From positions 1 to 46,060 of the forward strand of contig JAUHYY010000001.1 in assembly GCA_030426295.1 (NCBI GenBank): 46,060 nt of DNA, given 5' to 3'. The notes under the pieces were generated by a model. It was not told the DNA's origin. It saw only the letters and a program-made list of their open reading frames with translations, and did not search any database. Below are positions 1-25,986 of the stretch, one piece after another. A program made the translations under genes and the position numbers. The first letter of the stretch is position 1; each line of letters starts with the position of its first letter. The DNA is from a bacterium (GTDB lineage: Bacteria; Patescibacteriota; Gracilibacteria; UBA1369; GCA-2718715).

Positions 1-1623
1 TTAGATTTACCTGAGAGTATTAACAATGTTTATCAGGCACAGCTTGCTTTTATGGAAGGTAATGTCGCGGAAGCTTTGGTTTTGGTTGAGGGGGCAATTA
101 ATAGTGGTTCTTTGGATAGGGATTTGCAAAATATTGATTTGGGATTGAGCATAAGTGTTGAACAGCAATTTGGTTTTGATTTGCAAAAGTTACCTGAAAG
201 AGCAATTGAGTTGAGGAAACAATGTTATTTCATAGAACTGGATAATTTAGATGCTTTTGTTGAATCTGCGGGGCAAAGATACAGGGCGGGTATATTAACT
301 AATATGAGAGGATTGCGGCATGAATACGATCCTCATGCAGTTGTGGGTCAAATGTTAAATGACATTCGTGTAGGAGTTCAAAGTGGTATGTCTTGGGATG
401 ATGCTTATCAAAGAACTGTTTCTAGATTAGATTATTTTAATCAGCAGGGGGTACAGAATGCGCAAGAGGATGAAGGCTATCAGCCATATGATTTATTGGA
501 AGATTATTCGGAAATATTTAGAGAGTCTGATCCGCGAGTTAGAAGGGAGAAGGTATTAGATTTATCTAGAAGAGCTATGGATACGCATGGACTTTTTGGT
601 GTGGGATATTTTGGTTTAACAGAATCTTTGATTGACAGTGAATTTAGTGATGAGTTTGCTGCTATTTCTCAAGTTCCAGAGTTACAAACGCTTAGAGAAG
701 AAATGCTTGGACGGTTACAAGAGGAAATTGGTGGTTCTATTAGGCGAGATGTCGTTGCTGCTTTGCAACGGTCTTATGGAGAAGAGTGGGCCGCCCTAAG
801 TGTAGAGGAAAGAAATGCAATTATTTCTGAGCGCTTGGATTTAGTTTATGAGAATGTTGCAGACGATATTATGGTTGGTGAAACTATGAGATATGTAGCA
901 AATAATCCCGAAAGATTTTATGAGTTGGGTGGTTTAGTTGAAGTTGCAGATTTATATAATACTGCTGCAGTTCGGTATAATCGAATAATGGTTTTTGAGG
1001 AAATGGTTGAGCCTTTATTGGTTGCAGCAATTGAAACTGCTATTGCTATTCCTTTGGGTGTTGGAATGGGTAACGCAGTAAGAGGTGCTGCTTCTATAGC
1101 AAGAGTTGCGAGAATGGGACGATTAGGTCAGTTTGGTGCATCTGCTGCTGTTCGTTTGTCTCAAGGAGTTACCATTCAAACAGCACGTGGATTGACACGT
1201 GGTGCACTTACTAATGACTGGACTGAGCTCACAAACCTTAGAAATTGGACGTCTGGAGTAGCTGTGGAATCTGTGACTATGGGTTTATTAGGGTATACAT
1301 CTAGATTTGATTTAACGAATGGTCTTGCACTAATGAGTGTTTTAAAAACAGGTGCAGCATATGCGGGTGAAACTACTGCATTAACAATGATAGATAGGGC
1401 TGGGGATAGAATTGCAGGGCGTGAATCAGATACGTTCGCTCAAGATTTTGTTCAAAATGGTTTATTTGTATTTATGGCTAGATCGGTGAGAGGATCTTTA
1501 ACCCTAGGGAGGCGAGCACAGGTTAATAGCAATTCTAGGTTTGCAGAATTGTATAGAGGTTTGAGATCAACTTATGCTGAGGCTGGTGTAAATGTTATTA
1601 ATCCTGATAGAGGTATTATTTAG
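1..1623 (+). CDS. 3' part of a large orphan protein; reading frame is open to the left window edge
   Basis: Frame 1 has no stop from nt 1 (LDLPESINNVYQAQLAF precedes the first ATG at 52); ends TAG 1621-1623. No motif I recognise. The C-terminal third is Gly/Ala/Thr/Arg-rich (AIPLGVGMGNAVRGAASIARVARMGRLGQFGASAAVR). Confidence 0.5.
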   Translation, partial: LDLPESINNVYQAQLAFMEGNVAEALVLVEGAINSGSLDRDLQNIDLGLSISVEQQFGFDLQKLPERAIELRKQCYFIELDNLDAFVESAGQRYRAGILTNMRGLRHEYDPHAVVGQMLNDIRVGVQSGMSWDDAYQRTVSRLDYFNQQGVQNAQEDEGYQPYDLLEDYSEIFRESDPRVRREKVLDLSRRAMDTHGLFGVGYFGLTESLIDSEFSDEFAAISQVPELQTLREEMLGRLQEEIGGSIRRDVVAALQRSYGEEWAALSVEERNAIISERLDLVYENVADDIMVGETMRYVANNPERFYELGGLVEVADLYNTAAVRYNRIMVFEEMVEPLLVAAIETAIAIPLGVGMGNAVRGAASIARVARMGRLGQFGASAAVRLSQGVTIQTARGLTRGALTNDWTELTNLRNWTSGVAVESVTMGLLGYTSRFDLTNGLALMSVLKTGAAYAGETTALTMIDRAGDRIAGRESDTFAQDFVQNGLFVFMARSVRGSLTLGRRAQVNSNSRFAELYRGLRSTYAEAGVNVINPDRGII

Positions 1624-3203
1624 ATTTCTTTAATTTCCTTTGTGGTAAATGTTTTTGTACCTAATATTCCGCCTAAGTAAACTAATCCTCCGATAGGAAT
1701 CAAGATTAGAATGTTGAAGTTTTCGATTAAGTTATAAGTTGGAGCCTTTAAGTAATATACAACTACACCCATTAGGGCTCCAGAAAATAGTACTTTGATG
1801 TTTGTTAGCCACGGAATGCGTATTTCAATTAGTTTTCTGCATGCGACGTAAGTTCCAATTAGAATTATTAGCTCGGAAAGTATTGTGGTTAGGGCTGCTG
1901 CTTCAAATCCGTACTTTGGAATAAAAATTAGATTTGTTGTTACATTAAATATTACACCGATTAAGTTTACGATGAGAAGGTAGCTTTGTTTTTCCATTGC
2001 AACTAGGCTGAATGCGAATAGGGTGTTTAGAAATGCAAAAACCATTGCGACTAGAATTAGTCTTAAGGCGATGTCTGATCCTTTTCTGTATTCGAACGGA
2101 TTCGCTGTGTCGATTGTGAAGTCTTTCTTGATTTCAACGTTTGGGCAAATTGCAGAAGCTTCTTCTGGGCTTTGGTAAACGATTTGTGCGTTGTTAGCAC
2201 AGTGGTAGCCTGTTAAGAATTGTGGGCTAGCGATAGCGAAGGTTAGTGGGAAGGCAAGTAGTGCTCCACCTATTGCGATTGGAACAGCTAGAGTGAAGAG
2301 GAACTTCCAAGACTTGGTGATAAGCATTTGGAACCTTTCTTTGTTTTTGTTAAAGCTTTCTGTGATTGCAGGTAGTGCTGAGTTCATGAAGAAGACAGGT
2401 ATTACCCCGAGGATTTCCATGAATTTTAGACTTACTCCGTAGATACCTACTTGCGTGTAGTTTTGAATTAAACCAAGTAATACTACATCTATTTTGAAGT
2501 AGATTGTGCTTAGTACTAATGAGAGGCCAAGGGGTAAAGATTTGATTACTAGTTCTTTTGTGTATTTCCAATTGAAGTCGACGTAGACTTTTGTGTGTTT
2601 ACTTACAAATAGAATTATTAAGAGTAGGTTGAATATACTTGCGAGGACTCCTGCATAAAGTAAGTAGGTGAATCCTGTCTCAATATTGCCTACTGCAAGT
2701 ACATAGATAGTAAGTGCAATAAATCCAACGTTTAAAATTTTACCTATGGTGAGCGCGATAGTTGCGTATACCATTTTAAGTTTGTATTGAAGAACAGAGC
2801 TTAGGGTTCCTGTTAATAGTGAGAATCCTGTAGTAATTGCAACGAGCCATATTCCTTGAGATACATATGTATGTGCGTATTTTGGAATAAACTGGGCAAT
2901 TATTCCGGCAATTCCAAGCATTGAAATAATAAGTACAGATCGGATTGCGATTATATTAGCTAGAATTTCTGAGATGGATTTTTCTTTTTTTGACATTTCT
3001 CGAACGCCAATTGTGTAGAGTCCGAAATCTGCGGCAATTGCGAAGAATCCGATGTATTCGTAAAGAGTTGTATATTGACCATAAATATCTGCAGGTAAAT
3101 AGTTGGTAATAATTTTGATTGAAATTATTCCAAGTACTGCTGCGAGGAATCTTCCTAGCACCTGCCAAAAAGTGTTCGACAATATTTTTCGAGCAAGGCT
3201 CAT
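1620..3203 (-). CDS. MOP-superfamily oligosaccharide/polysaccharide flippase (Wzx-like polysaccharide biosynthesis protein)
   Basis: 527 aa, polytopic. N-terminus LARKILSNTFWQVLGRFLAAVLGIISIKIITNYLPADIYGQY is typical of Wzx/polysaccharide biosynthesis transporters. Its stop overlaps the convergent gene's stop (TTAG at 1620-1623). Confidence 0.75.
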   Translation of the reverse strand: MSLARKILSNTFWQVLGRFLAAVLGIISIKIITNYLPADIYGQYTTLYEYIGFFAIAADFGLYTIGVREMSKKEKSISEILANIIAIRSVLIISMLGIAGIIAQFIPKYAHTYVSQGIWLVAITTGFSLLTGTLSSVLQYKLKMVYATIALTIGKILNVGFIALTIYVLAVGNIETGFTYLLYAGVLASIFNLLLIILFVSKHTKVYVDFNWKYTKELVIKSLPLGLSLVLSTIYFKIDVVLLGLIQNYTQVGIYGVSLKFMEILGVIPVFFMNSALPAITESFNKNKERFQMLITKSWKFLFTLAVPIAIGGALLAFPLTFAIASPQFLTGYHCANNAQIVYQSPEEASAICPNVEIKKDFTIDTANPFEYRKGSDIALRLILVAMVFAFLNTLFAFSLVAMEKQSYLLIVNLIGVIFNVTTNLIFIPKYGFEAAALTTILSELIILIGTYVACRKLIEIRIPWLTNIKVLFSGALMGVVVYYLKAPTYNLIENFNILILIPIGGLVYLGGILGTKTFTTKEIKEI

Positions 3204-3237
3204 GAATATTTATGATTATAATCCTGAATAGTGTAAG

Positions 3238-3272
3238 TTATTAATTGTTGATTGTTAATTCATTATTAAATG
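3238..3272. repeat. Period-7 tandem repeat (ttattaa ttgttga ttgttaa ttcatta ttaaATG) running into the prfB start
   Basis: Five consecutive heptads read directly from the sequence; same family as the heptad arrays at 6522, 27130, 30742, 33364 and 42257. Confidence 0.6.
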
Positions 3273-4361
3273 CAGGACTATAAACCAAGGCTTGAAGAAA
3301 TCCAGGCGCAGATTGAGAAAGGGTTAAAGGTTATTGATTTACCAAAGTTAAAAGTTCGAAAAGTTGAGCTCGAATCTAAGATGAATGAGCAAGGGTTTTG
3401 GGATAATCCAGATAAAGCCGCTCAAGTCTCGCAAGAAGATGCTCAAGTAGCTGAAGAAATTGAGAAGTGGGAAAATATAAAACGAGATGTAGACGAGTTA
3501 CTTGGGTTGTTGCCATCTATTAAGCCTGAAGAGGATCCAGAAACTGCAGAAGAATTTAAAGAGATGGTTGCGACTCTTGAGAGTCAGTGGGGAGTTTTGA
3601 ATATTGAAACTTTCTTGGGAGGTCGGTTTGATAAGAAGAACGCTGTGGTTACTTTGATATGTGGGACAGGTGGTAAAGATGCTCAAGATTTTACTGATAT
3701 GCTGCTTCGAATGTATTCAAGATATGCTGAAAGTAGAGATTGGAAGGTTGAGGTTTTAGAAGTTTCGGAAGGTGATGAAGTTGGACTTAAGCAGGCGACA
3801 GTTAAGGTGAGTGGTGCATATGTTTACGGATATTTGAAATTTGAGCATGGGGTTCATAGATTGGTGAGACTCTCCCCTTTTAATTCTGGAAATACTCGGG
3901 AGACTTCATTTGCGAAGGTGGATGTTATTCCAGAAGTGCATTTTGAGGATCATATAGAGATTGATGATAAAGATTTGAAGATTGATGTTTACCGTGCATC
4001 AGGTGCTGGTGGTCAGCATGTTAATACTACTGATTCGGCTGTGCGGATTACGCATGTTCCGACTAGTATTGTGGTGCAGTGCCAGAACGAAAGAAGTCAG
4101 CATCAGAATAAAGAAGTTGCTATGCAGATGTTACAGGGGCGATTGCAGACTTTGATGCTTGAAAAACAAGCTGAGACTATTGATGATTTACGTGGGCATA
4201 AATCTGAAGTGAGTTGGGGGAATCAAATTCGTTCTTATGTTTTGCATCCATATAAGATGGTGAAAGACCATCGAACTGATTATGAAGAAAATAATCCTGA
4301 TAAAGTCTTTGATGGCGATATTCATGGATTTGTTGAGAGGGAACTTGAGGTTTTGTCGTAG
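3270..4361 (+). CDS. prfB: Peptide chain release factor 2 (single uninterrupted ORF, no programmed +1 frameshift)
   Basis: SPF tripeptide (RLVRLSPFNSGNTRETSF) and GGQ (YRASGAGGQHVNTTDSAVRITHVPT). 363 aa, collinear with E. coli RF2 from the N-terminus. Confidence 0.95.
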   Translation: MQDYKPRLEEIQAQIEKGLKVIDLPKLKVRKVELESKMNEQGFWDNPDKAAQVSQEDAQVAEEIEKWENIKRDVDELLGLLPSIKPEEDPETAEEFKEMVATLESQWGVLNIETFLGGRFDKKNAVVTLICGTGGKDAQDFTDMLLRMYSRYAESRDWKVEVLEVSEGDEVGLKQATVKVSGAYVYGYLKFEHGVHRLVRLSPFNSGNTRETSFAKVDVIPEVHFEDHIEIDDKDLKIDVYRASGAGGQHVNTTDSAVRITHVPTSIVVQCQNERSQHQNKEVAMQMLQGRLQTLMLEKQAETIDDLRGHKSEVSWGNQIRSYVLHPYKMVKDHRTDYEENNPDKVFDGDIHGFVERELEVLS

Positions 4362-4376
4362 AATTGGGCGGGGTTC

Positions 4377-4400
4377 GCTTCGGCGTCGAAGCTCTTGACG
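4377..4400. repeat. GC-rich palindromic element, copy 1 (gcttcggcgtcgaagctcttgacg)
   Basis: 23/24 nt identical to 34159..34182. Forms a 6-bp stem gcttcg/cgaagc. Lies 16 nt after the prfB stop. Confidence 0.7.
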
Positions 4401-4476
4401 TAGAGTTGGTTTGTGAATTTTTGGTGTGAAATGGCTTAAAGATAAGCTATTATCAATTTGTAATATAAGTTTAGTT

Positions 4477-4935
4477 ATGATTCTCGAAATAATTACAGGT
4501 AAGGATTCTCCGATTTTGCGGACTGTTTGTGATGAAGTAAAAGATTTCGATAAATCTTTGAAGAAGCTAGTCGAAGATATGAAAGAAACTATGCATGATG
4601 CTCGTGGGTTAGGTATTGCTGCGCCGCAAGTAAACATTAATGCTCGAGTATTTATTGTGACTCTTGGTCATGGCACAAAGAATCCAGTTGAGGTGGCTAT
4701 GGTGAACCCAACGATTACAAGTAAATCTAAAGAAACATATGTTGATGAAGAAGGATGCTTAAGTTTGCCAAATACTTATGGTCGAGTTGAGAGACCAAAT
4801 GAGATAAATGTCGAGTATTTTAATATTAAAGGTGAAAAGAAATCCCTAAAGTTGGCTGGTCTTGATGCGAGAGTGGTGCTGCATGAGAATGATCATATTG
4901 ATGGAGTGTTGTTTATAGATAAGCTGGTAGGTTAG
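4477..4935 (+). CDS. def: Peptide deformylase
   Basis: The three deformylase motifs are present: GLGIAAPQV, EGCLSLP and HENDHIDG. Start moved from the track's 4426 to ATG 4477 (MILEIITGKDSPIL), which fits the usual N-terminus. Confidence 0.9.
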   Translation: MILEIITGKDSPILRTVCDEVKDFDKSLKKLVEDMKETMHDARGLGIAAPQVNINARVFIVTLGHGTKNPVEVAMVNPTITSKSKETYVDEEGCLSLPNTYGRVERPNEINVEYFNIKGEKKSLKLAGLDARVVLHENDHIDGVLFIDKLVG

Positions 4936-4963
4936 TTGACAATTATCGTAATGCTGCTATGCT
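4936..4963 (+). promoter_or_regulatory. Sigma-70-type promoter (TTGACA-16-TATGCT) for the ECF sigma gene
   Basis: TTGACA at 4936-4941 begins immediately after the def stop TAG (4933-4935). TATGCT at 4958-4963; ATG at 4986. Confidence 0.5.
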
Positions 4964-4985
4964 TTTTCCTTGTAACTAAATCTAA

Positions 4986-5633
4986 ATGAAAGGTCCAAGA
5001 CTTGAAGGTGATTCTAGAGATGTTCTAACTGGTGAAGAATTTTCTCAGTTAGTTTCTGAAGCGCGCAATACAATGACTGGGGTTGCAATGAAATATATGA
5101 AAAATAGACCAGATGCTGAGGACTTAATTCAGGCAACTCTTGAAAAAGCTTGGAAATCTAGAGATAAGTTCCAAGCGGGAACAAATTTTAGTGCATGGAT
5201 TTTTGTGATAATGCGAAATACTTTTATCAATATTTATAGGAAAAAGAAAAAATCTCTTGAAGTTAATGGTTTCGAAGATGGTGAAATAGAGTGGCGGTAT
5301 GGTAGTGAAGAGCGAGAAACAATTTATCGCGTGGAATCAGTTGAGGGTTTGATGGATACTTTTTCTGATGAAGTTAGAGAGGTCCTAATGGATTTAGAGG
5401 AAGGCTTTAGGAATGTGATAATTCTTTTTATGTTGGAATTTACTTATAAAGAGATTGCAGAGATCTTGGATGTTGCGGTTGGTACTGTTATGTCGCGCTT
5501 ATATAGATCAAGAAGGCATCTAGGCATAGACTTAGATGATTTTGCAAGAGAACAATATGGTATTAACCCTAAGCATTCAGGCGTTGTTAAGGCTATAGCT
5601 GATGTGAACTTAGATAGAGGTGCTGCTGAGTAA
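4986..5633 (+). CDS. ECF-type sigma-70 family RNA polymerase sigma factor
   Basis: Region 2 (DAEDLIQATLEKAWKSRDKFQAGTNFSAWIFVIMRNTFINIYRKKKK) and region 4 HTH (FTYKEIAEILDVAVGTVMSRLYRSRRHL). 3' end overlaps the convergent femAB-like gene by 24 nt. Confidence 0.85.
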   Translation: MKGPRLEGDSRDVLTGEEFSQLVSEARNTMTGVAMKYMKNRPDAEDLIQATLEKAWKSRDKFQAGTNFSAWIFVIMRNTFINIYRKKKKSLEVNGFEDGEIEWRYGSEERETIYRVESVEGLMDTFSDEVREVLMDLEEGFRNVIILFMLEFTYKEIAEILDVAVGTVMSRLYRSRRHLGIDLDDFAREQYGINPKHSGVVKAIADVNLDRGAAE

Positions 5634-6470
5634 TCGTTTCAGTTTTAATCCAAAGTAGTGCAAAGGTTTATGCACTATTACTTTTGATTGTTTCCATTTG
5701 ATGTGTTCGCCGCCGAATTTGGTTTTGAATTGGGTTACTCCTTTGAGTGGGTCTTTTGGTTTTTGTGGATCTGCGATTCCTAGAAAGTCGTAGTACTTAA
5801 ATCCCCTTTTTTTGGCTTCTTTTATTGCGTGCCATTGGAGTAGGTAAGGGGCCATAAGGTTCCTGTGTTTGTTTGATGAAGCTCCGTAGAAGTATGTTGC
5901 TGTGTTGCCGATGTAAGTGTTTAGGATTCCTGCAATTGGTTCGTCGTTTAGGTAGGCCATGAATAGTTTAGCTTTGTTCTTTTTGCCGAGTACGTTCAAG
6001 AATGCTTCGTAATGTTTTTGAGGATTGATGTAGAATCCATCTCGTTTGCCTGTTGCTTCTAAGATTTTATAGAAGTTATTTGATGTTTTTTCTTCTTTGA
6101 TTGTGAGTCCCTTCTTTTCGGCTAGGCGGATGTTGTATCGTCCTTTTTGATGCATGTCTTTTAGAATTTCGTCTTCGGATTTTGAAAGGTCAATTATCAG
6201 TGTGTGTCGAGGAGTGATTTCTCTAAAAAATTTTTTTGGATTCTGCTTTGTAGCTTTGTAGTTTTCGATCAGGGTGAAAATTGCGTTTTCTTGTTTGGCA
6301 ATTTTTTGGAGGTCAGGATTCGTGCTGTTTGTGTGTAGCATGCTCAACTTTTTGTTGAACTGATATTGGTAAACGATTTGGTCGTCAAGTTTGTGGATTT
6401 TTGATGCCTTGCCTGCTTGTAGTTGGGTTTCGGCGAAGTCCTGATCTGTAAATGGATTTGTAAGGTTCAT
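5610..6470 (-). CDS. FemAB-family peptidoglycan interpeptide-bridge aminoacyltransferase (FemX-like)
   Basis: KGRYNIRLAEKKGL and FYGASSNKHRNLMAPYLLQWHAIKEAKKRGFKYYDFLGI are typical of the FemABX family. Confidence 0.75.
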   Translation of the reverse strand: MNLTNPFTDQDFAETQLQAGKASKIHKLDDQIVYQYQFNKKLSMLHTNSTNPDLQKIAKQENAIFTLIENYKATKQNPKKFFREITPRHTLIIDLSKSEDEILKDMHQKGRYNIRLAEKKGLTIKEEKTSNNFYKILEATGKRDGFYINPQKHYEAFLNVLGKKNKAKLFMAYLNDEPIAGILNTYIGNTATYFYGASSNKHRNLMAPYLLQWHAIKEAKKRGFKYYDFLGIADPQKPKDPLKGVTQFKTKFGGEHIKWKQSKVIVHKPLHYFGLKLKRLLSSTSI

Positions 6471-6484
6471 GGCTTAAGAGTAAT

Positions 6485-6517
6485 AAAAAACCGGCCTAAT
6501 TGGTAGGCCGGTTTTTT
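6485..6517 (-). terminator. Rho-independent terminator after ftsZ
   Basis: Stem ccggcct (6491-6497) pairs with aggccgg (6505-6511), loop aattggt. Flanked by an A-run and a T-run, so it could act in both directions. Confidence 0.8.
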
Positions 6518-6521
6518 GTAT

Positions 6522-6549
6522 GGCTAATTGCTAATGGCAAATAGCTTAT
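6522..6549. repeat. Period-7 tandem repeat (ggctaat tgctaat ggcaaat agcttat) spanning the ftsZ stop codon
   Basis: Four heptads read directly from the sequence; lies between the ftsZ stop (6546-6548) and its terminator. Confidence 0.6.
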
Positions 6550-7796
6550 CTGTTCATTTTGTTTCTAATGAATGCAGGAATATCTAGTTCGCTTTCGCTT
6601 TGCTCTAGGCCTTGGTGTTGGCTTTGCTGCATGTTCATTAGAGGTTCTTGTGTTTCTTGAGTTTGAGTAGCTTGTGTTTGAGTTGCTTGTTGTTGAGTGT
6701 TTGTTCCTCCAAGAGCTGCTGAGTGGAATCCAGAATGTTGAAGTCTATTTTGTTTTTTAACATCGTCGAATCCAGTTGCTACTACAGTGATTTTGATTTC
6801 ACCTGTGTAGTTGTCGTTTACTACTGTACCGAAGATAATTGTTGCATCTGGGTCAGCTGCTTCTGTGATTACTCTAGCTGCTTCGTCTACTTCGAACATC
6901 GATAGGTCGTTACCACCTGTAATGTTGAATAGAATTCCTTTAGCACCTTCGATGTCTTGTTCAAGTAGAGGACTGCTTACAGCTGCTTTAGCTGCTTCTA
7001 GTGCTCTGTTTTCACCTGAACCGTAACCGATACCCATAAGGGCTGATCCAGCGTTTTCCATTACGGTTTTAACATCGGCGAAATCCACATTGATCATACC
7101 GTGAACTGTAATTAGGTCAGCGATACCTTGCACACCTTGTCTTAGGATGTCGTCTACTACTGTGAAGGCTTCTGTTAGTGGAGTCTTTTTGTCGATGATA
7201 GATAGAATTCTGTCGTTTGGAATAGTGATAAGTGTATCAACTTTTTCTTTAAGAGTTTGTAACCCTTCATCACATTGAGATTTTCTTCTTGGTCCTTCGA
7301 ATGAGAATGGTTTTGTTACAACACCTACTGTTAAGATTCCAAGTTCTTTAGCGATTTCTGCTACTACTGGTGCAGCACCTGTACCAGTACCACCACCAAG
7401 TCCACATGTAATGAATACCATGTCTGCTCCTTCAAGCATTGATTTGATTTCTTCTGAGCTTTCTTCGGCAGATTGTCTACCCATGTCTGGGTTACTTCCT
7501 GCACCGAGTCCTCTAGTAGTTGCTTTACCAATGTTTACTTTATTTGGAGCTTCTGAATGGTAAAGAGCTTGAGCGTCAGTGTTAACTGCGCTGAATTCAA
7601 CGCCTTTAAGGTTAGCTCGGATCATTCTGTTTACTGCGTTGTTACCACCGCCACCACAACCAATTACTTTGATCTTGGCAACCGGAGTAACGTCTGGAGT
7701 TACCTCCATAGTTTTAGAAGATTTCTTTGGACCTGAAAACAGGTTCTTGAGAGTATCTTCTGAGTTTGTTGTTCTATCGTCAGACATAGTACTCAT
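6546..7796 (-). CDS. ftsZ: Cell division GTPase FtsZ
   Basis: [14 protein letters not shown] and the tubulin signature [13 protein letters not shown]-terminal anchor peptide DIPAFIRNK. Gln/Thr-rich linker [17 protein letters not shown]-terminal extension of about 40 aa. Confidence 0.97.
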
Positions 7797-7858
7797 AGTT
7801 AATTGTTTATATTATTGTTTTCAAAATGGTTGGGTTCGTTGCAGTCGTTACTAAACAA

Positions 7859-9103
7859 TTACGGAAGTAAATTTTTAGCCCATCCCTTTAATGTGCTAGC
7901 GGCTTTAGTGAAATCGATCTTTGAGAAATCGATACCAAGTCCGATGTGCGCATCTTCAAATCTGCTTCCCCAAACTAGAAGTCCGATTGCTGATGAATAT
8001 GATGGATCATCAATTTTTTCAACAACTCCTTCGAAGTTAGTCGGGAATCCGATTTGAACAGGTAGGTTAAGTGTTTCCCGAGCAAGGTCTATCGTTCCAG
8101 GCATTTTTGCTCCGGCACCTGTTAGGATTACTCCTGCAGGCAACATTCCGTCTCTATGAATCTTTGCCAGTTCATCTCTTACAAGTAAGAAGATTTCGTG
8201 GTAACGAGCTTGAATGATTTGTGAAAGTGTCTTTCTAGATACTTGCTGCAGATCAATCTTGCTCAAAAGTGATAAGTCGATCATTTCTCTTTCTTGAACT
8301 TCCTCTGGTAGGCAAGTCCCGTATTCGATCTTGATCTTTTCTGCTGTGTCTATTGAAGTTTTTAGTCCAATTGCAACGTCGTTAGTAACATTTTCTCCGC
8401 CAACTGGGATCACTGCTGAATGTAGGATAGTTCCTTCTTCGTATACTGCCATTGATGTAGACCCTGAACCGATATCAACTACGACTACACCAAGTTCTTT
8501 TTGTCTCTTTGATAAAACAGATTCTCCAGGTGCTAGTGAGTTTGGAATAATATCGTTAATGTCTACGCCAGCTTGAAGTACTGATTTTTCAATATTCTTA
8601 ATTGCTGGAACAAGTCCTGTAACAATATGAGCTTCTACTTCCAGTCTGATACCGCTCATTCCTACTGGGTATTTGATTCATTTTTGTTCGTCTACCGTAA
8701 ATGATTTAGGAATAATTCTTAAGATTCTTCTATTTGATGGAATTGAAACTGCTTGTGCAGCTTCTAGCACTCTGTCGATGTCTTCTTCCATAATCTCGCT
8801 GTTTGGGTTTGCAATTGCGATTACCCCTTTTGAGTTTGATGACTCAACATGGTGACCATTAATACCAAGGAATACATGGTGGATTGGTTCGCCTGCCATT
8901 CGTTCAGCGTCTTCAAGTGCAGATGCTATTGAGTTGATTGTTTCTTCTACATCAATAACCATGCTTTTTCTAATTCCAGTTGATGGAGCAATACCTACAC
9001 CAATAATGTTTGGTACTCCAGTTTTTTCATCAACTAAGCCAACGATTACTCGAATTTTTGAGCTACCGATATCTAAGCTTGCTATGATTTTATTTCTCGC
9101 CAT
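7859..9103 (-). CDS. ftsA: Cell division protein FtsA, interrupted by one in-frame TGA (8678-8680)
   Basis: Track ORFs 8678..9103 (SLDIGSSKIRVIVG phosphate-1 motif) and 7859..8659 (VVVDIGSGSTSMAVY, ILTGAGAKMPG) are in the same frame. 141+1+6+266 = 414 codons, a normal FtsA length. The junction reads TVDEQK*IKYPVGMSGIRLEV. Confidence 0.85.
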
Positions 9104-9412
9104 TTTGTTAGTCGTTAGTTATTTGGAAATTAGTAGTCGCCAAAATTCTGCGCTTGTCTAAAGTGGAATCAATGTACAATTTACAGAGTGCTTTTACAAA
9201 CAGTTTTTAGCCGGTTTAGAGTAGGTAGGTATTTACGTAAACATTTTTTGTTCGACTATTCAGGTGGCTACCAAGCGGTATAGTTCTGCTCTAGTGTAAG
9301 CGATATGAGCAGTAATTTGAATTTGCAATAATTTCAAAAGCAGGTGTAGCTATATATTTCCGTGAACCAATTTTGTGTACCCTAGAGTGCAGCCGTGCAA
9401 ATTTTGTGATCG

Positions 9413-10321
9413 CTAAAAGAGGGCTTGTTGTTGGTTGAGGTGCTTGACAGTTTCGAGTTTACTTTCTAAGTTCTCTAGTTTATTTATGAGTGATTTCATT
9501 TCGAGTTGAGTAAAAAATTCTCGGGCAGTTTTAAAACTTATGTTTTGAGTTTTGAAACTTTCTATCTTTGTTTCGATTTCAATATCGTCTTCTAGTGTTG
9601 CAAGTCGTCGACATAAAAATGCCATTTCTTTTCCTTCGATTAGTTTTGTTTTTAGTGCACCTTTTATGTTTTCGATGTTTTCATATATATCTTCGAGGTG
9701 TCCGTACTCTTGTATGAGTTTTGATGCAGTTTTTTCTCCTATTCCGCGGATTCCCGGTAGGTTGTCTGATGAATCACCGTGAAGTCCTTTGTAATCTGGT
9801 ATGAATTCAGGAGTGAATCCGTATTTTTCTACTACTTCGTCTATTCCCATTAGTTTGTTTGGGTTTCTTCCGTGTCCAGGTTTTAGAACTTTGATGTCGT
9901 TAACAAGTTGAAGCAGGTCGAAGTCGTTAGAGTAAACGATTACTTCTGTATTTGGCGTTTCGTTCTCTCGGGCAATTGTTGCTATTAAGTCGTCAGCTTC
10001 TACGCCTGGTTTTTCTACTAGGTTGAATCCGGCTTCAGTTAGGATTTGTTTGATTGGGCCTATTTGAGAATAGAGCTCGTCTGGTGCTTTTTCTCGGTTA
10101 GCTTTGTAGTCTTCGTATTCTTCTTTACGTCTTGTTACTTCTTGTCTGTCGAAGCATACAGCCATATAGTCCGGCTTTTCTGCTATTAGTAGGTTTAATA
10201 ATATAGTGTAAAACCCGAAAACAGCATTAATTTGTTGCCCTTTGGATGTTTTCAGTGGAGGTATAGCATAAAAGCCTCGAAAGACAAGTGCAGTGCCGTC
10301 TATAAGCAGTAATTTGGACAT
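9413..10321 (-). CDS. Stand-alone 5'-3' exonuclease (Pol I N-terminal/FEN-like domain)
   Basis: LLLIDGTALVFRGFYA, GVEADDLIATIA, SSDNLPGIRGIGEKTASKLI (HhH2). At 302 aa there is no polymerase domain. Confidence 0.85.
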   Translation of the reverse strand: MSKLLLIDGTALVFRGFYAIPPLKTSKGQQINAVFGFYTILLNLLIAEKPDYMAVCFDRQEVTRRKEEYEDYKANREKAPDELYSQIGPIKQILTEAGFNLVEKPGVEADDLIATIARENETPNTEVIVYSNDFDLLQLVNDIKVLKPGHGRNPNKLMGIDEVVEKYGFTPEFIPDYKGLHGDSSDNLPGIRGIGEKTASKLIQEYGHLEDIYENIENIKGALKTKLIEGKEMAFLCRRLATLEDDIEIETKIESFKTQNISFKTAREFFTQLEMKSLINKLENLESKLETVKHLNQQQALF

Positions 10322-12560
10322 TGGAAACTATTTTAGAGCTTTAATTTGTGCTATAATAGCAGGATATATTTATTTTAAAAACGTGGGATTAGGAGAAGTT
10401 TTTGAAACAGTTGGTGATTTTGATCAGTCGGTTGAAGATCCGCAGGTTCTTGAAGAATTAAGTTTTGAAGATAGGTGTGCTGAAGTTTTTGGCCCTGATG
10501 CTTTTGAGTCAAATCGAGAAAATCATGAAGCAGAACAAGTTGCTCAAACTTTGGATCAGCTCGAGCCAGATATACTTGCTTTTGCAGAGACAGTTCAGAG
10601 CGTTGCCCCTGCTGGCCGTACAGATTATGTGTTGGAGTTTTACGATGGTTTTCAAGATAAGGAAGCTTTTTTTACTGTCCTAATTAATACGAATAGCGAT
10701 GTGATTATTGAAGCCTTTATTCCTGCGATTTTTGATAGAGATATATTTTTAAGACTTTTATATAATGACAATCTTAAGAGTGAACATATTGATGGCATAC
10801 TAGATTTGATCGAGTCGGAGAACCCATATCTCTTAAGTGAGAATGACTATTTTGCTGATTCTTCTGTTTTTTATGATTTAAGAATGTTGATGTCTAGGCC
10901 TTCATTCAATAGGTCTCATGCACAGCGTATTGTTGAAATGGCTGTAGAATATGATATGAAAGATTTAGTAATTGCATTTTTAGAGTTTGCTCAAAGGGAT
11001 ATATTTGACGATTCAAATGTAGATTTTATGAATATGATTCTGGACCATTTTCATGATGATGAGGTTCGTTTCAGGGTTGTTAGCCTTGCTGCTAATTTTA
11101 GCTTTGCAAGATTTATGGATTTTATTAGGAACCAGGATGCAAGTGATGATTTTGTATTTTATTATTTGGAGAATATAGAATATCAGGGAGGTTTTAGTTA
11201 TGAGTCAGCAGTTGTTAGAAACTATTTTGAAGATAATATTAGTGCTTTATTTGATTATAATATGTCAAGATCGTATGAATTAGCATCTTTACTTATAATG
11301 AAAATTCCTTCTTCTGTTATTGCTGAATTTATATACTGTACACGTTCAATTGAGAAAGATGAAAACATGATACGCTTACTATTTAATAATCGATCAGGAA
11401 CGCCATATGTTGTTGAAGATTTTGTAGAAACTCTTAGTTTTGAAGATGTTTTAGATATTTTAGGTGATGATGATTATACTAGTTCTCAACGTTTAAGGTT
11501 GGTTTTGAATTTAGCTGATGACTTAAAGGAAAGGTTGTTAAATGAATTTCCATTTATGCACGAGAATGTTGCTGGGTGGCAGTCTGGTTTAAATAGTGTT
11601 TTATATGGTGTTGAAGATGCTGACCCTGTTTTCACCTTTATTATTAGAAATTTATCCGCGAATTTTCTTTCACAATTTTCTCTTCCTCAAGGGAATATCT
11701 CTGACTGGCAGAGAATTCTTGGTAGGTATTTTGTTATGAATGAAGTTGCACATGTGGATCCTGAGGCGGTGGAATCTGCTATTGATGATATCAGTGAGTA
11801 TAGAGAAAGGTTTGGGAATATAAGTATATATAGTGGTCGAAATGTGGTTGAGTTTAATTCGTCTGAAGTATGGGTTGGAGATATTAGTAGATTTAATTTA
11901 CCTGAATTACAGGATGCAATTGCTGAGCAGGGGCCTGCCTCATATTTTCATTATGAATTTGAAGCTGATTTAAATACTTATGAAGACCTTTCTGTGCTTG
12001 CTGATGATGGAACATTAATTGAGGGAAGAGTATCTAGAGGGCCCGATGAAAATGTGACTTTTATTAGGAATCATATTCTTGATGCCCCTCCACCATTAAC
12101 TTGTACGTTTAACGGTCATGGTCATCCAACTGCTGTCAGCCTTGAAAATGCAATGTTCAATGTAGCAGATATTGTTAGGATTTTAGCTGAAAGGTATGAG
12201 CGTTATGGTGATGTTGTTTCTGAAGATATTTATATTTTACCTATGTGCTTTGGTAATAATATTGTGAATAATGTTATTACTGAATTAAATAATTTAAACT
12301 TGCCGGCTCCTGTTTTTTTAACATATGCGGAATATAATCAAATTTCATTTGATGAACCACATCTTGCTCTGCGATATGGTAATGTGTTTACTCGAGAGCT
12401 TGTTCAGAAGGAGAATGCAACAATAGGTGATTTTATGGATTTAGATTTTGATAGGAATTTTAATTTATCTAATCCTACTGTAATTGTTCCAAAGCAAGAT
12501 GGCGGCACGATTCAAATCTCGCAAAATGAAATTGAGTTGCCTGACCAAAGGGCGGTATAG
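10293..12560 (+). CDS. Orphan 755-aa acidic protein: helical N-terminal two-thirds, C-terminal region with a caspase-like His/Cys signature
   Basis: Long ORF with no family I can name. LTCTFNGHGHP (His codon 12117-12119) and DIYILPMCFGNN (Cys codon 12246-12248) lie 43 residues apart. True start uncertain; the first 29 nt overlap the divergent exonuclease gene. Confidence 0.55.
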   Translation: MPSISSNLDIGNYFRALICAIIAGYIYFKNVGLGEVFETVGDFDQSVEDPQVLEELSFEDRCAEVFGPDAFESNRENHEAEQVAQTLDQLEPDILAFAETVQSVAPAGRTDYVLEFYDGFQDKEAFFTVLINTNSDVIIEAFIPAIFDRDIFLRLLYNDNLKSEHIDGILDLIESENPYLLSENDYFADSSVFYDLRMLMSRPSFNRSHAQRIVEMAVEYDMKDLVIAFLEFAQRDIFDDSNVDFMNMILDHFHDDEVRFRVVSLAANFSFARFMDFIRNQDASDDFVFYYLENIEYQGGFSYESAVVRNYFEDNISALFDYNMSRSYELASLLIMKIPSSVIAEFIYCTRSIEKDENMIRLLFNNRSGTPYVVEDFVETLSFEDVLDILGDDDYTSSQRLRLVLNLADDLKERLLNEFPFMHENVAGWQSGLNSVLYGVEDADPVFTFIIRNLSANFLSQFSLPQGNISDWQRILGRYFVMNEVAHVDPEAVESAIDDISEYRERFGNISIYSGRNVVEFNSSEVWVGDISRFNLPELQDAIAEQGPASYFHYEFEADLNTYEDLSVLADDGTLIEGRVSRGPDENVTFIRNHILDAPPPLTCTFNGHGHPTAVSLENAMFNVADIVRILAERYERYGDVVSEDIYILPMCFGNNIVNNVITELNNLNLPAPVFLTYAEYNQISFDEPHLALRYGNVFTRELVQKENATIGDFMDLDFDRNFNLSNPTVIVPKQDGGTIQISQNEIELPDQRAV

Positions 12561-12645
12561 ACTTAACTGTCAGCATATCGTCTGTTTGTGGCAAGCTGTA
12601 CAGTGTATTAATCTTTGGTTGGGAGTTTTAATTTGGTCTTAAATC

Positions 12646-12654
12646 TGTTATAAT
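12646..12654 (+). promoter_or_regulatory. Extended -10 element (TGtTATAAT)
   Basis: tgttataat at 12646-12654, 32 nt upstream of ATG 12686. Confidence 0.4.
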
Positions 12655-12685
12655 ACTTAGATAAATAAATAACAAAAAGAACCAA

Positions 12686-13105
12686 ATGAGCCCAGTTAAA
12701 AAGTCTCAAAATCCTAGAATTATGTTGGTTGGGAGTTTTCCGGATATGTTTTTGGAGGGAATTTCTGAGCTTGGGTTTGATTTCTTCTTATACAAAAGTA
12801 GTAAGGCTGAGAAAACTAAAGAAGCTGACATTGTAGTCGTTGGTCTTGATCGTTTGGATCAAGCTGTAGATTTTGTTTGTAAGTCAAAAGCTGTGCCTGT
12901 TGTTAAGAAAGGTACTAGAAGTTTTGTTAATTTTGATCCACTTGCTGAAGAAGGAAATGCATTCCTGTATGAAGGTGGTTCTCAATGGCATATGCTACAA
13001 GCTCTAATTCGAGCTGTAGAGACTTATAAGTTCGAATACGATTGGAAGGTCGTATGTGACCAAGTGAATGAGCTAGTGCTCGAAAATGTGCCTACTCCAG
13101 TTTAG
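12686..13105 (+). CDS. Hypothetical 139-aa protein, faint resemblance to the C-terminal lobe of GT-B glycosyltransferases
   Basis: EEGNAFLYEGGSQWHMLQALIRAVETYK resembles the glycogen-synthase-type C-terminal helix region. This is resemblance from memory only. Confidence 0.35.
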   Translation: MSPVKKSQNPRIMLVGSFPDMFLEGISELGFDFFLYKSSKAEKTKEADIVVVGLDRLDQAVDFVCKSKAVPVVKKGTRSFVNFDPLAEEGNAFLYEGGSQWHMLQALIRAVETYKFEYDWKVVCDQVNELVLENVPTPV

Positions 13106-13503
13106 TCTAGAGTTCTAATCCCTGAGCCGTTACTCGATTGAAGATCCTGACTTATGTTTTGGATTATTTTTATGATTTCTTCGAATCTAATGTATTCGAT
13201 TGTGTTTAGTCCGATAACTTGACCTACAGCGTTTACAATAATGATTGCAAAGATTGTTACGATAAGACCTATGATTGCGTAACGGATTGTACTAACTGCT
13301 TGTTTGATTTTGTCTTCTTGTCCTCCAGATAAAATAAATGAAATCCCACCTATGAAGATGAAGATTACTGATAAAAGTCCAGCGGCAATAATTGCATAAG
13401 CAAGACCTCTGTTAATTAGTTCTGTAATATCAAGGCTCTCTGCTGTATCGAGTAGGGAACCTTCAGTGATCTGTGCGAAATATAAGAATTTGTTTATAAG
13501 CAT
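13102..13503 (-). CDS. Small two-TM membrane protein, TrbC/VirB2 (T4SS pilin)-like
   Basis: AYAIIAAGLLSVIFIFIGGISFILSGGQEDKIKQAVSTIRYAIIGLIVTIFAIIIVNAV matches the TM, GG..d.k, TM layout of pilin-like proteins common in reduced genomes. Confidence 0.5.
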   Translation of the reverse strand: MLINKFLYFAQITEGSLLDTAESLDITELINRGLAYAIIAAGLLSVIFIFIGGISFILSGGQEDKIKQAVSTIRYAIIGLIVTIFAIIIVNAVGQVIGLNTIEYIRFEEIIKIIQNISQDLQSSNGSGIRTLD

Positions 13504-13518
13504 TTGTTTTTATCTAAA

Positions 13519-13550
13519 GAAAAAACTCACCAACTTGCATTGGTGAGTTT
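13519..13550 (-). terminator. Rho-independent terminator after the KH-domain gene
   Basis: Stem ctcaccaa (13526-13533) pairs with ttggtgag (13540-13547), loop cttgca. The A-run at 13520-13525 is a T-run on the minus strand. Confidence 0.75.
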
Positions 13551-13580
13551 ATCAAAGTTTCTATTTTTGATGAAGAGATT

Positions 13581-13886
13581 TTATAATCCTAGTTCATCAT
13601 CGATACCAGCGTCTGGAAGGTTAACTTCTTCTCCGCTTGGTTCAAGAATTTTAAGATTTACTCTTTCTTCATTCTTAGATCCGATAAGTCTTAGTAGAAC
13701 TCTCATAGCTTTAGCGGTTTGACCATTTCTACCAATGATCTTACCCATGTCGTCTTTAGCAACTTTAAGAGTAATTAGTACTCCTAGGTCATCGATTGTT
13801 CTGTCGATAACTACTTCATCTGGGCTGTCTACGATATTCTTAACTACGAACTGTAAAAAATCTACGTCTTTGTGTGTGTTGTCCAT
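13581..13886 (-). CDS. KH-domain RNA-binding protein (YlqC/UPF0109 family)
   Basis: VLITLKVAKDDMGKIIGRNGQTAKAMRVLL contains the GxxG KH motif. Conserved position directly downstream of rpsP. Confidence 0.85.
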   Translation of the reverse strand: MDNTHKDVDFLQFVVKNIVDSPDEVVIDRTIDDLGVLITLKVAKDDMGKIIGRNGQTAKAMRVLLRLIGSKNEERVNLKILEPSGEEVNLPDAGIDDELGL

Positions 13887-13937
13887 CTTGAATTAAAGGT
13901 TAACGAATTAAAAACACAAATTAAATTTGCTTTATTA

Positions 13938-14540
13938 TTATTCTGATTTTTCTTCAGATTCTTCTGAAGTTTCTTTGGCTGGAGCTTCCTCAGCAGCTGG
14001 TTCTTCAGCTGGAGCTTCCTCAGCAGCTGGTTCTTCAGCTGGAGCTTCCTCAGCAGCTGGTTCTTCAGCTGGAGCTTCCTCAGCAGCTGGTTCTTCAGCT
14101 GGAGCTTCTTCAGCAGCTGGTTCTTCAGCTGGAGCTTCTTCAGCAGCTGGTTCTTCAGCAGCTGGTTCTTCAGCAGCTGGTTCTTCAGCTGGAGCTTCCT
14201 CAGCAGCTGGTTCTTCAGCTGGAGCTTCTGGAGCCTCTTCTTCTTCTGGAGCGTTTTTCTTTCTTCTTTTCTTGTCTCGGTTTCCGATATATTTGTCCAT
14301 ATCAGACATTCCTAGACCTTTAAGAAGAGAAGCAACTGTGTCAGTTGGTTGAGCTCCTTTAGATATCCATTCTTTAATTTTATCTTGATCAACTTCAAGA
14401 ACTTTAGGGTTTTGAGTTGGAAGATAGTGACCTACTAGGTCGATATATTTCTTTTTTACTGCTTGAGATTTCTCAGCAACAACAATTCTGTATGCAGGCA
14501 GGTTTTTTCTACCGATACGTTGGAGTCTTATTCTTAACAA
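13938..14540 (-). CDS. rpsP: 30S ribosomal protein S16 with a C-terminal acidic Pro/Ala/Glu repeat extension of about 110 aa; TTG start
   Basis: [24 protein letters not shown]...[13 protein letters not shown] is canonical S16. It is followed by ([10 protein letters not shown])n. Start codon TTG at 14538-14540. Confidence 0.9.
13975..14235. repeat. Tandem 30-nt coding repeat (ggagcttcctcagcagctggttcttcagct, about 8 units) inside the rpsP 3' half
   Basis: Near-perfect units are visible from 13981 to 14220, with one 15-nt half-unit variant around 14155-14185. Confidence 0.95.
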
Positions 14541-14573
14541 GTTTTTCTGGGTTAAACCTATAAAAAAGCGTGA

Positions 14574-14882
14574 TTAGTCTAGCGCCTTTTCTTTTAAAGT
14601 CAAGCTGAGTTTCTTTACGCTTTCTTTACCCAGTTTTTGGTTTATCAACTTGATAAATTTGGCCTTATTATAAAATAGCTCTTGAGAGGCTACGGATCCC
14701 TTTGTGTAAACAAAAACCGTGTTTTCTTTGAAAGATCTGATTTTTACGATTTTGACTAGTCGTGGAAATTCCGCTGCCAGTATGTCTCTAGCTATAGAGC
14801 AAACATGAGCTCCTTCCATCTGTTTTTGAAGTCCTAGGTGGTTGATCGTCTTTTGTACTTGGCTTTGAAAAGTTTCGAACAA
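14574..14882 (-). CDS. DUF721/DciA-like protein
   Basis: IRSFKENTVFVYTKGSVASQELFYNKAKFIKLINQKLGKESVKKLSL follows the DUF721 pattern. The track start is TTG at 14880-14882; the true start is uncertain. Confidence 0.5.
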   Translation of the reverse strand: MFETFQSQVQKTINHLGLQKQMEGAHVCSIARDILAAEFPRLVKIVKIRSFKENTVFVYTKGSVASQELFYNKAKFIKLINQKLGKESVKKLSLTLKEKALD

Positions 14883-14890
14883 GGGGAAGT

Positions 14891-14929
14891 AATTATAATA
14901 CGTAATACATAATTATAATTACGTATTAT
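14891..14929. repeat. AT-rich inverted repeat (ataatacgtaat ... attacgtattat) overlapping the GT4 stop codon
   Basis: 12-bp arms at 14895-14906 and 14918-14929. The 18-mer attataattacgtattat (14912-14929) recurs exactly at 27171-27188. Confidence 0.6.
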
Positions 14930-16011
14930 GCATTATTATACAACTCAAGAGTTTCTTTTGCCATTTTTTCGAATGAGAAGTCTTTAAGTCTTTGCTGGCC
15001 GTTTTCGATTAGTTGGCTTCTGTATTCTTCGTCAGTAAGTATTTTGTTTACTTTTAATGCTATGTCTTGAGGGTCTATAGGCGAAAAAGTCGTAACTCCG
15101 TTTGATCCGATTTCTGGTAGGCATGCTTTGTTTGAGCAAGCAACTGGTGTTTTTGTTGAGAAGGCTTCTAAGATAGGGAGTCCGAAGCCTTCGTATAGAG
15201 ATGGATAAATATAACAGTCGGCGTTTTCGTAAATTTTTGCTAAGTCAGATTCGCTTACTAGTCCTGTTGTTATTACTTCGTTTTCTAGCCCGAGCTCTTG
15301 GATCTTGTTTCTTGTTTCTGGGTAATGAGGATCTTCTTTACCTGTGATTACTAGTTTCCCTTGATAACTATAATCGGACTTTAAGATGTTGAATGCGCGA
15401 ACTAAGTTTATTAAGTTTTTATGGCTTCGCCAGTTACCTGTATATAGAAGGTATTTTTCTGGTAGTTTGATAGATGAGCTGTGATTGGTTTTGAAGCTTT
15501 CGGCTAATCCAAGGTAGATGTTTTGAGTTTTCTTTTTAGTAAATCTATAGAGTTCGTGTAAATCGTTTTCTGTGTTTTTCGAAACTGTAATGATTTTTTT
15601 TGCTTTTAGAATTGAGGCTTTGAATATGATTTTGTATGCGAGTCTTTTGATTAAGCTTGTGTATTTTTTCCCTGGGTAGTAGTGAAGTGTTAAGTCGTGA
15701 ATTGTCACTATCTGTTTTCTTAGTGTTAAGAGTGGGGTATTAAAATGTGTGAAATGGATTAGGTCTGGCTTAGTTTGCTTTATTGCTAGTGGGAAAATAG
15801 TTTGTTCTTTAAGGGAATATATTGGTGCGTTTACCAAATATTTTTTGAAGTTCGGGGTAGGACATTTGAAGTTTTCGAACTCAGGGTTTTTAAAATATAG
15901 AATGTATTCATTCTTAGTATCTATTTTTGCTAGGTTTTTAATTAATTCGTCTACGTATCTTCCGATTCCGAATTCAGTAGAGTAGAGGCGACAGTCGATT
16001 CCGATTCTCAT
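14926..16011 (-). CDS. Family 4 glycosyltransferase (GT-B, Glycos_transf_1)
   Basis: YPSLYEGFGLPILEAFSTKTPVACSN is the EX7E-region signature. Start moved to ATG 16009-16011 (MRIGIDCRLY). Confidence 0.85.
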   Translation of the reverse strand: MRIGIDCRLYSTEFGIGRYVDELIKNLAKIDTKNEYILYFKNPEFENFKCPTPNFKKYLVNAPIYSLKEQTIFPLAIKQTKPDLIHFTHFNTPLLTLRKQIVTIHDLTLHYYPGKKYTSLIKRLAYKIIFKASILKAKKIITVSKNTENDLHELYRFTKKKTQNIYLGLAESFKTNHSSSIKLPEKYLLYTGNWRSHKNLINLVRAFNILKSDYSYQGKLVITGKEDPHYPETRNKIQELGLENEVITTGLVSESDLAKIYENADCYIYPSLYEGFGLPILEAFSTKTPVACSNKACLPEIGSNGVTTFSPIDPQDIALKVNKILTDEEYRSQLIENGQQRLKDFSFEKMAKETLELYNNA

Positions 16012-16139
16012 ATAAAGGTATTTAATAGGATTGGAGTATATAATAGTGATATTGTAAAACAAAAGTGATTCTTGAAGGTTTGACATTTTGGGAAAAAGTC
16101 TTAAGATTCCTAGCTGAATATTTTTTAACCATATTTATT

Positions 16140-16436
16140 ATGGGAACTTTAGAATCTCCAGATGTACTTGGAGTGATAGAAGAAGGTTCAGGTATTGAGG
16201 TTTCGAAAGACCGAGAGTCTGGGCCAATAGCATTAATCACTACTTCTTTAAGGAGAATTTTAAGTGTAGGTGTTAACGGTATTACTTCAAGTGGTGATAA
16301 TTTTCCTACTGTACCTTTGAGAAACGGTTACGGTGAGATCTCTCAAACTTATGATATGAGGGGGCTTGAAATTGATGATAGAGGTAAAATTGTTGACCGA
16401 AGAACTGGTAAAAGTGCTGCTGATGGTTGGATGTAA
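16140..16436 (+). CDS. Hypothetical small protein
   Basis: ORF only; start taken at MGTLESPD because the longer 16065 start would overlap the divergent GT4 gene region. Confidence 0.3.
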   Translation: MGTLESPDVLGVIEEGSGIEVSKDRESGPIALITTSLRRILSVGVNGITSSGDNFPTVPLRNGYGEISQTYDMRGLEIDDRGKIVDRRTGKSAADGWM

Positions 16437-16442
16437 TTTCAT

Positions 16443-16470
16443 TTGACTTTTTTAAGAGCTTGGCTAAAAT
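16443..16470 (+). promoter_or_regulatory. Promoter for tRNA-Asp (TTGACT-16-TAAAAT)
   Basis: TTGACT at 16443-16448 and TAAAAT at 16465-16470; the mature tRNA 5' end is at 16489. Confidence 0.55.
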
Positions 16471-16488
16471 GCAAAAGCTCTTTCAAAT

Positions 16489-16565
16489 GGGGTCGTAGTT
16501 CAGTTGGTTAGAACGCCTGCCTGTCACGCAGGAGGTCGCGAGTTCGAGTCTCGTCGATCCCGCCA
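16489..16565 (+). tRNA. tRNA-Asp (anticodon GUC), CCA encoded
   Basis: Acceptor stem ggggtcg/cgatccc, anticodon arm cctgc-ctGTCac-gcagg, T arm gcgagttcgagtctcgt, discriminator G followed by CCA. Confidence 0.95.
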
Positions 16566-16581
16566 TTACAAAGCACAATAT

Positions 16582-16608
16582 AATACACATGAAGATGTGT
16601 ATTTTTTG
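16582..16608 (+). terminator. Rho-independent terminator after tRNA-Asp
   Basis: Stem aatacacat pairs with atgtgtatt, loop gaag, followed by tttttt. Confidence 0.8.
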
Positions 16609-16641
16609 TTTGTGCTTGAACATATTTTGACACGGTGTTAC

Positions 16642-16660
16642 TATCCCCTTACAGGGGATA
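16642..16660. promoter_or_regulatory. Putative CsoR operator (TATCCCCT-tac-AGGGGATA)
   Basis: Perfect 8-bp inverted repeat with C4/G4 tracts, 17 nt upstream of the csoR ATG. This is the G/C-tract palindrome style known for CsoR-family operators. Confidence 0.65.
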
Positions 16661-16676
16661 TATTTAATTTGTAGTT

Positions 16677-16949
16677 ATGGACAAACGTAAGAAGAAAACG
16701 GCTAAAGAGAGGGCTATTCATAGAGTCCGAATAATTAAGGGGCATTTGAATAAGATAGAAAAAATGCTTCAAGATGATGTTTACTGTGTTGATTTAATCC
16801 ATCAATCAAGAGCAGTTCAGAGTGCATTAAAAAAAATGGATATGCTTCTGATTGAGAATCATTTGAAGCATTGTCACTTGAATCATATTAAGTCGGGTGA
16901 AACTGACAAAGCGATAACTGAATTATTAACTCTTTTTAATTATAAATAA
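16677..16949 (+). CDS. csoR: CsoR-family copper-sensing transcriptional repressor
   Basis: RIIKGHLNKIEKMLQDDVYCVDLIHQSRAVQSALKKM...HLKHC shows the Cys-His-Cys ligand pattern. TAATG overlap with the next gene. Confidence 0.85.
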   Translation: MDKRKKKTAKERAIHRVRIIKGHLNKIEKMLQDDVYCVDLIHQSRAVQSALKKMDMLLIENHLKHCHLNHIKSGETDKAITELLTLFNYK

Positions 16950-18295: not shown

Positions 18296-18305
18296 TTAAA
18301 ATTGT

Positions 18306-20585: not shown

Positions 20586-20592
20586 ACATTTC

Positions 20593-21987: not shown

Positions 21988-22049
21988 TTTATGGGTTTTC
22001 TAAGAAAAAGCTAGGAGTTTTGAATGTTCAAAATATTAAAAGCGATGGT

Positions 22050-22835: not shown

Positions 22836-22837
22836 AA

Positions 22838-22856: not shown

Positions 22857-22940
22857 AATATTATATCACGTATAAGTGGCTTTAACAAGCCTGTGGTGGT
22901 TTAATGAGGCCTGCTATAGATATGATTTGTAATGGAGGTA

Positions 22941-25985: not shown

Positions 25986-25986
25986 T

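Follow-up and report, generated by a model that had tools for sequence, protein, structure and literature searches.

An in-frame TGA in ftsA of a Peregrinibacteria/Peribacteria genome is very probably a one-off GGA-to-TGA substitution

Introduction

In bacteria that use genetic code 25, UGA stands at glycine positions in many genes, a tRNA-Gly(UCA) is present and release factor 2 (RF2) is absent. In-frame UGA codons are also met under the standard code. Of the stop codons in bacteria, UGA is the leakiest, and in many bacteria prfB, the RF2 gene, carries an in-frame UGA and a +1 programmed frameshift through which its expression is autoregulated. The bacteria with code 25 are Absconditabacteria (SR1) and Gracilibacteria (BD1-5). 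Peregrinibacteria, Absconditabacteria and Gracilibacteria form one well-supported clade (PMC8080830), and a 2026 review confines UGA-to-Gly recoding to the Gracilibacteria/JAEDAM01 lineage (PMC13293708).

Here we describe a single in-frame UGA in ftsA, found in a 46,060-nucleotide stretch of DNA that was analysed as a whole (the window). The locus resembles code 25 in that the UGA lies where homologues have glycine and in that its lineage falls within the same broad CPR clade, but it differs in that the window has only this one UGA, an intact RF2 and genes that end in UGA, and in that other datasets of the same strain have GGA at the site. With selenocysteine genes (UGA plus a SECIS element) and genes subject to programmed readthrough it shares an in-frame UGA followed by conserved coding sequence; unlike them, ftsA has no SECIS, no Rfam match and no downstream RNA structure beyond that of shuffled sequences, and no relative has UGA or a Cys codon at that position. 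The autoregulatory UGA of prfB is likewise in frame and early in an essential gene, but works through a +1 frameshift, whereas both ftsA open reading frames (ORFs) lie in one frame with no frameshift between them. The locus fits in full among the ordinary nonsense substitutions and consensus errors of metagenome-assembled genomes, as a private single-base change that breaks a conserved ORF and comes with no other change in sequence. Were UGA decoded as glycine here, the locus would represent an intermediate stage of code-25 reassignment in a sister lineage of Gracilibacteria, and thus long-sought evidence on how a code changes.

Results

The interrupted ftsA reading frame

The minus-strand sequence around the stop reads 5' ACG GTA GAC GAA CAA AAA TGA ATC AAA TAC CCA GTA GGA ATG AGC GGT ATC AGA, in agreement with the initial annotation of this DNA except for one garbled token there ('GVA-frame'). 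The features of the locus, in window coordinates, are as follows.

6546..7796, minus strand: ftsZ, directly downstream of ftsA; its exact protein sequence led to the independent assembly L082
7859..9103, minus strand: ftsA, 414 codons when codon 142 is counted as sense
7859..8659, minus strand: C-terminal ftsA ORF, 266 aa
8660..8677, minus strand: 18-nt spacer encoding IKYPVG, ordinary ftsA coding sequence that matches the intact allele in assemblies L082, L084 and L085
8678..8680, minus strand: in-frame TGA at ftsA codon 142; the T at window position 8680 (minus-strand base) is the sole difference from the intact GGA allele
8678..9103, minus strand: N-terminal ftsA ORF, 141 aa

The two ORFs had been described as lying in the same frame and together giving 414 codons, and a recount gave the same result (141 + 1 + 6 + 266 = 414). 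The joined product is FtsA: it scored 390.6 bits against TIGR01174 (cutoff 175.85), covering profile positions 2-369 of 371, and matched solved FtsA chains with E = 1e-74. Pfam domains were found at residues 83-162 (SHS2_FTSA) and 207-374 (FtsA). The stop cuts the first of these, the SHS2/1C domain, so that the N-terminal fragment holds only profile positions 1-58 of 79. An in-frame ATG (Met149) follows 18 nt past the TGA.

The initial annotation had placed the UGA opposite a glycine of E. coli-type FtsA. That placement was right: in a HMMER alignment to solved gammaproteobacterial FtsA chains, the stop falls opposite the G of 'DYQEGIKNPVG'. Staphylococcus FtsA has Glu in the same column, so glycine at this position is not universal among all FtsA proteins.

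Among GTDB species representatives, the joined FtsA matched 80 loci at 70-76% identity, the closest at about 76%. Almost all carry the label Candidatus Peregrinibacteria or Peribacteria; some are filed as 'Gracilibacteria' or 'Patescibacteria group'. Nearer relatives in the protein database have 98%, 90%, 87% and lower identities, and all are full length (414-416 aa). The window is from a Peregrinibacteria/Peribacteria genome, and the earlier view that it came from a reduced-genome lineage related to the code-25 groups is borne out by the clade that Peregrinibacteria share with them (PMC8080830).

UGA is a stop codon in this genome

Stop codon usage was counted over 44 ORFs of the window: 25 end in TAA, 14 in TAG and 5 in TGA, the last number including the N-terminal ftsA fragment. 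The initial annotation had counted four genes other than ftsA with a terminal TGA, an intact RF2 gene, and no TGA interrupting the other long ORFs; all three statements hold. In two of the four TGA-terminated genes the match to a Pfam profile runs to or nearly to its C-terminal end, and in the remaining two another stop follows 2-3 codons on. The genes that bear most directly on termination at UGA are listed here.

3270..4361, plus strand: prfB (RF2), uninterrupted ORF; TIGR00020 461 bits (cutoff 370), SPF at residue 202 and GGQ at residue 247
24273..25985: DsbD-thioredoxin fusion gene, 570 aa, ending in TGA (25983..25985); Thioredoxin_10 profile matched to position 142 of 142 at the last residue
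39254..40033: shikimate dehydrogenase gene, ending in TGA TAA; SDH_C matched to position 30 of 31

With both its SPF and GGQ motifs intact, RF2 makes UGA-specific termination available. The prfB gene itself has neither an in-frame UGA nor a +1 programmed frameshift.

When ORFs were joined across TGA codons in all six frames of the 46-kb window, only ftsA gave a conserved long ORF; the other joins were trivial extensions of gene ends or antisense frames. Among the 981 codons of the window ORFs that are either GGN or an in-frame TGA, 980 are GGN and the ftsA codon is the only TGA. Searches of the window with ARAGORN and Rfam found no tRNA with anticodon UCA, the only tRNA being Asp-GTC. UGA is a stop in this organism, which uses the standard code.

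These counts bear on the headline reading of the locus, an incipient or ambiguous reassignment of UGA to glycine in a sister lineage of Gracilibacteria and Absconditabacteria within Peregrinibacteria. The initial annotation had raised both code 25 itself and an early stage of its adoption. The lineage does lie within the larger clade that holds the code-25 groups (PMC8080830), and the UGA does occupy a glycine position. Against this stand the single occurrence in 46 kb (1 of 981 glycine-position codons), the termination of four window genes by UGA, two of them at C-terminal ends of Pfam profiles, the intact RF2, the lack of a tRNA-UCA in the window, and a literature that limits recoding to Gracilibacteria/JAEDAM01 (PMC13293708). 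Together with the ftsA genes of relatives and of the same strain, described below, these findings leave the proposal unsupported, and we regard reassignment as effectively refuted.

Codon 142 in related ftsA genes

Related ftsA loci, 84 in number, were compared by local tblastn. Codon 142 encodes glycine in every one (GGA in 32, GGC in 32, GGT in 11 and GGG in 9), and all 84 ftsA genes are free of in-frame stops over their whole length. GGA is also the codon in L081, the next closest relative (98% amino acid identity). In 18 of the 84 loci TGA is the natural terminator of ftsA, which again speaks against its decoding as glycine. The motif GIKYPVG, within residues 142-148, is present in nearly all relatives. 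UGA serves as a stop in this clade, where the glycine at codon 142 is never written UGA.

The same strain has GGA in other assemblies

Assemblies of the same strain were retrieved by exact-sequence look-up of neighbouring window proteins. Three of them, each from a different dataset, span the stop.

L082, Logan, run ERR3420974 (contig found in 2 samples), 2291 nt, window 8719..6429: 1 difference, G for T at 8680, giving GGA
L085, Logan, run SRR12363484, 4134 nt, window 11210..7077: 1 difference, G for T at 8680, giving GGA
L084, JGI metagenome 3300036198, 9690 nt, window 13872..4184: 3 differences, at 8680 (giving GGA), at 5568 and an indel at 6511

All three have GGA at codon 142 and are 99.96-99.98% identical to the window. 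The differences at 5568 and 6511 occur in L084 alone among the compared contigs, and L082 has the window sequence at 6511. Gene callers reported an unbroken 414-aa FtsA on both L084 and L085. Exact look-up of the 141-aa and 266-aa fragment products returned no record from any assembly of the collection; the window proteins of 755 aa, 829 aa and 259 aa likewise returned none.

Near-identical independent contigs (L082-L090) span 34,714 of the 46,060 window bases, and about 11 kb are without such cross-coverage. At least two independent datasets span 15,168 bases, and within these position 8680 is the only site at which all covering datasets, at least two in number, disagree with the window. The T at 8680 is private to the window record. 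GGA in sibling genomes had been named beforehand as a finding that would count against recoding, and GGA is what these three siblings have, as assemblies rather than reads. The initial annotation had further argued that conservation of the 18-nt spacer speaks against an old pseudogene. This is correct but trivial, since nothing else sets the window apart from the intact allele.

The contigs L082-L090 place the same strain in five public datasets (ERR3420974, SRR12363484, SRR24442557, SRR33375180 and JGI 3300036198), with nucleotide identities to the window of 99.1-100%, and of at least 99.95% outside one variable gene. A study of metagenomes from biofloc aquaculture (PMC10582022) cites one of these datasets, SRR24442557, a hint as to the habitat of the strain.

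Readthrough and reinitiation

A UGA that is truly present might be tolerated if near-cognate decoding in the context CAA AAA UGA A yielded enough full-length FtsA, whether by programmed or by leaky readthrough. The A-rich flanks of the UGA, which had suggested this idea, are in its favour, as is the general leakiness of UGA. The same context is, however, ancestral coding sequence and identical in the GGA allele, so nothing has evolved there to promote readthrough. The 111 nt around and downstream of the UGA have a minimum free energy of -14.7 kcal/mol (z = +0.57), and 139 of 200 shuffled sequences fold at least as well. An Rfam search of the window for a SECIS or other recoding element matched only the tRNA. 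RF2 is intact, and a stop at codon 142 is found in 0 of the 84 relatives. Lacking structure above that of shuffled sequences, an Rfam element or a relative with the stop, the readthrough proposal is not supported, and we consider it very improbable.

The in-frame ATG 18 nt after the stop had also raised the prospect of a functional split FtsA, in which the 141-aa fragment and a 266-aa fragment reinitiated at this AUG would form an active protein. In the 22 nt that precede each of 34 ATG gene starts of the window, we found no Shine-Dalgarno-like motif (GGAG, GAGG, AGGA or AAGG; 0 of 34) within 20 nt of the start, and the leaders of these starts are A/T-rich, which suggests Shine-Dalgarno-independent initiation in this organism. 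Because the motif is missing from every one of these starts, it is useless as a criterion for the internal ftsA ATG, and a missing motif there would by itself be no bar to initiation. The structure of the protein and the comparative data, on the other hand, weigh against a split: the cut falls inside the SHS2/1C domain, residues 142-148, including the GIKYPVG motif, are absent from both fragments, the gene is split in 0 of the 84 relatives, and the same strain has it unsplit elsewhere. The proposal thus found no support, and a functional split has hardly any probability in our assessment.

Origin of the TGA

Taken together, these data argue that the TGA is very probably a one-off GGA-to-TGA substitution in this record, with no recoding mechanism behind it. 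This was the first of the explanations offered by the initial annotation (a single substitution, or a sequencing or assembly error), and the GGA in three assemblies supports it. The underlying event would be a G-to-T substitution (C-to-A on the plus strand, at window position 8680) that turned a GGA glycine codon into a TGA stop in this record only, in an organism that reads UGA as a stop under the standard code through its intact RF2. Its ftsA normally encodes an uninterrupted 414-aa protein with an invariant glycine at codon 142. The ftsA stop is no biological feature of the lineage.

The glycine context carries little weight for recoding. Of all single-base substitutions in the coding sequence of the window, 4.75% create a stop, and about 21% of the random substitutions that create a TGA start from GGA. 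A UGA opposite glycine is therefore uninformative and an ordinary coincidence, a point that also counts against code 25.

Two origins of the T can be weighed. It is probably an error of sequencing, consensus or assembly, or else a minor variant caught by the consensus, and this would be the most likely case. An error is favoured over a real allele because one would hardly expect a strongly conserved divisome gene to acquire a nonsense codon at consensus frequency as the sole private difference of an otherwise identical strain, and because errors escape the filter of selection. The disagreement of three assemblies with the window at 8680 is consistent with an error without proving one. Some evidence sits awkwardly with a one-off substitution: that the sole private difference should be a nonsense change in a conserved gene is somewhat unlucky under either model (4.75%), and the window has no other private difference where at least two samples overlap, so a random consensus error was not expected a priori.

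The next most likely origin, possible but clearly less so, is a nonsense allele private to the strain and truly present in the sampled cell or population, a sporadic loss-of-function mutation that would be very recent and either deleterious or transient. UGA would then be read as stop and FtsA function lost, the product being the 141-aa fragment, perhaps with some C-terminal fragment. Apart from this base the window matches the other assemblies, as expected for a very recent mutation, and other differences confined to single contigs show that there is real micro-variation in the population. Yet all 84 relatives have an FtsA at least 70% identical and without an in-frame stop, a sign of strong purifying selection; the stop falls within the SHS2/1C domain (residues 83-162); the allele is absent from every other assembly; and selection makes it unlikely that a nonsense change would rise to consensus frequency as the one private difference. 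That the TGA allele is both real and dominant, in cells that still divide through near-cognate readthrough of UGA or because loss of FtsA is tolerated, is improbable. If true, it would amount to a natural knockout of a conserved divisome gene, or to its rescue by leaky decoding, in a lineage adjoining the UGA=Gly clade.

For a one-off substitution, the practical consequence is one of caution. Near code-25 bacteria, a lone UGA opposite glycine is what about one in five new UGA nonsense changes will produce by chance, and such sites call for a check against independent assemblies or reads before recoding is invoked. In annotation, this ftsA is best given as a gene that is probably intact but contains one suspect base, or as a pseudogene flagged pending reads.

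Other features of the window and sister contigs

The strand asymmetry of the window is very strong. Over 1..46060, the plus strand has 23.7% G against 13.7% C and 35% T against 27.6% A. GC skew at third codon positions is +0.58 in plus-strand genes and +0.53 in minus-strand genes, and being alike in both gene orientations, it is independent of the direction of transcription. The skew presumably reflects replication, with the whole window on one replichore and the plus strand as the leading strand.

The divergent ORFs at 9413..10321 (minus strand) and 10293..12560 (plus strand) share 29 nt at their starts as listed. The second encodes a large unannotated protein, which the JGI gene call gives as 748 aa compared with 755 aa here, so its true start probably lies downstream of the GTG at 10293. 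The 755-aa protein has no Pfam match on record.

Several differences distinguish the sister contigs from the window. The segment 24843..25913, about 1.07 kb of the gene for the 570-aa DsbD_TM-AhpC/TSA-Thioredoxin_10 fusion, is missing from JGI contig L086 at its positions 16972..16977; a 200-aa DsbD_TM-only gene with the same C-terminal end as the fusion is called there instead. The two versions look like the alleles of an in-frame indel that is polymorphic among populations of this strain. The same contig (JGI 3300036198, Ga0401691_0124) folds back near position 6140, its first ~6.1 kb being an inverted copy of the next segment with mirrored gene order, and its junctions are rearranged relative to the window; it is probably an assembly chimera. 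In the roughly 4 kb upstream of the MatE efflux gene (20593..21987), contig L087 (SRR33375180) departs from the window only once, but it has about 45 substitutions in or right beside that gene, a pattern that looks like localized recombination or allele replacement.
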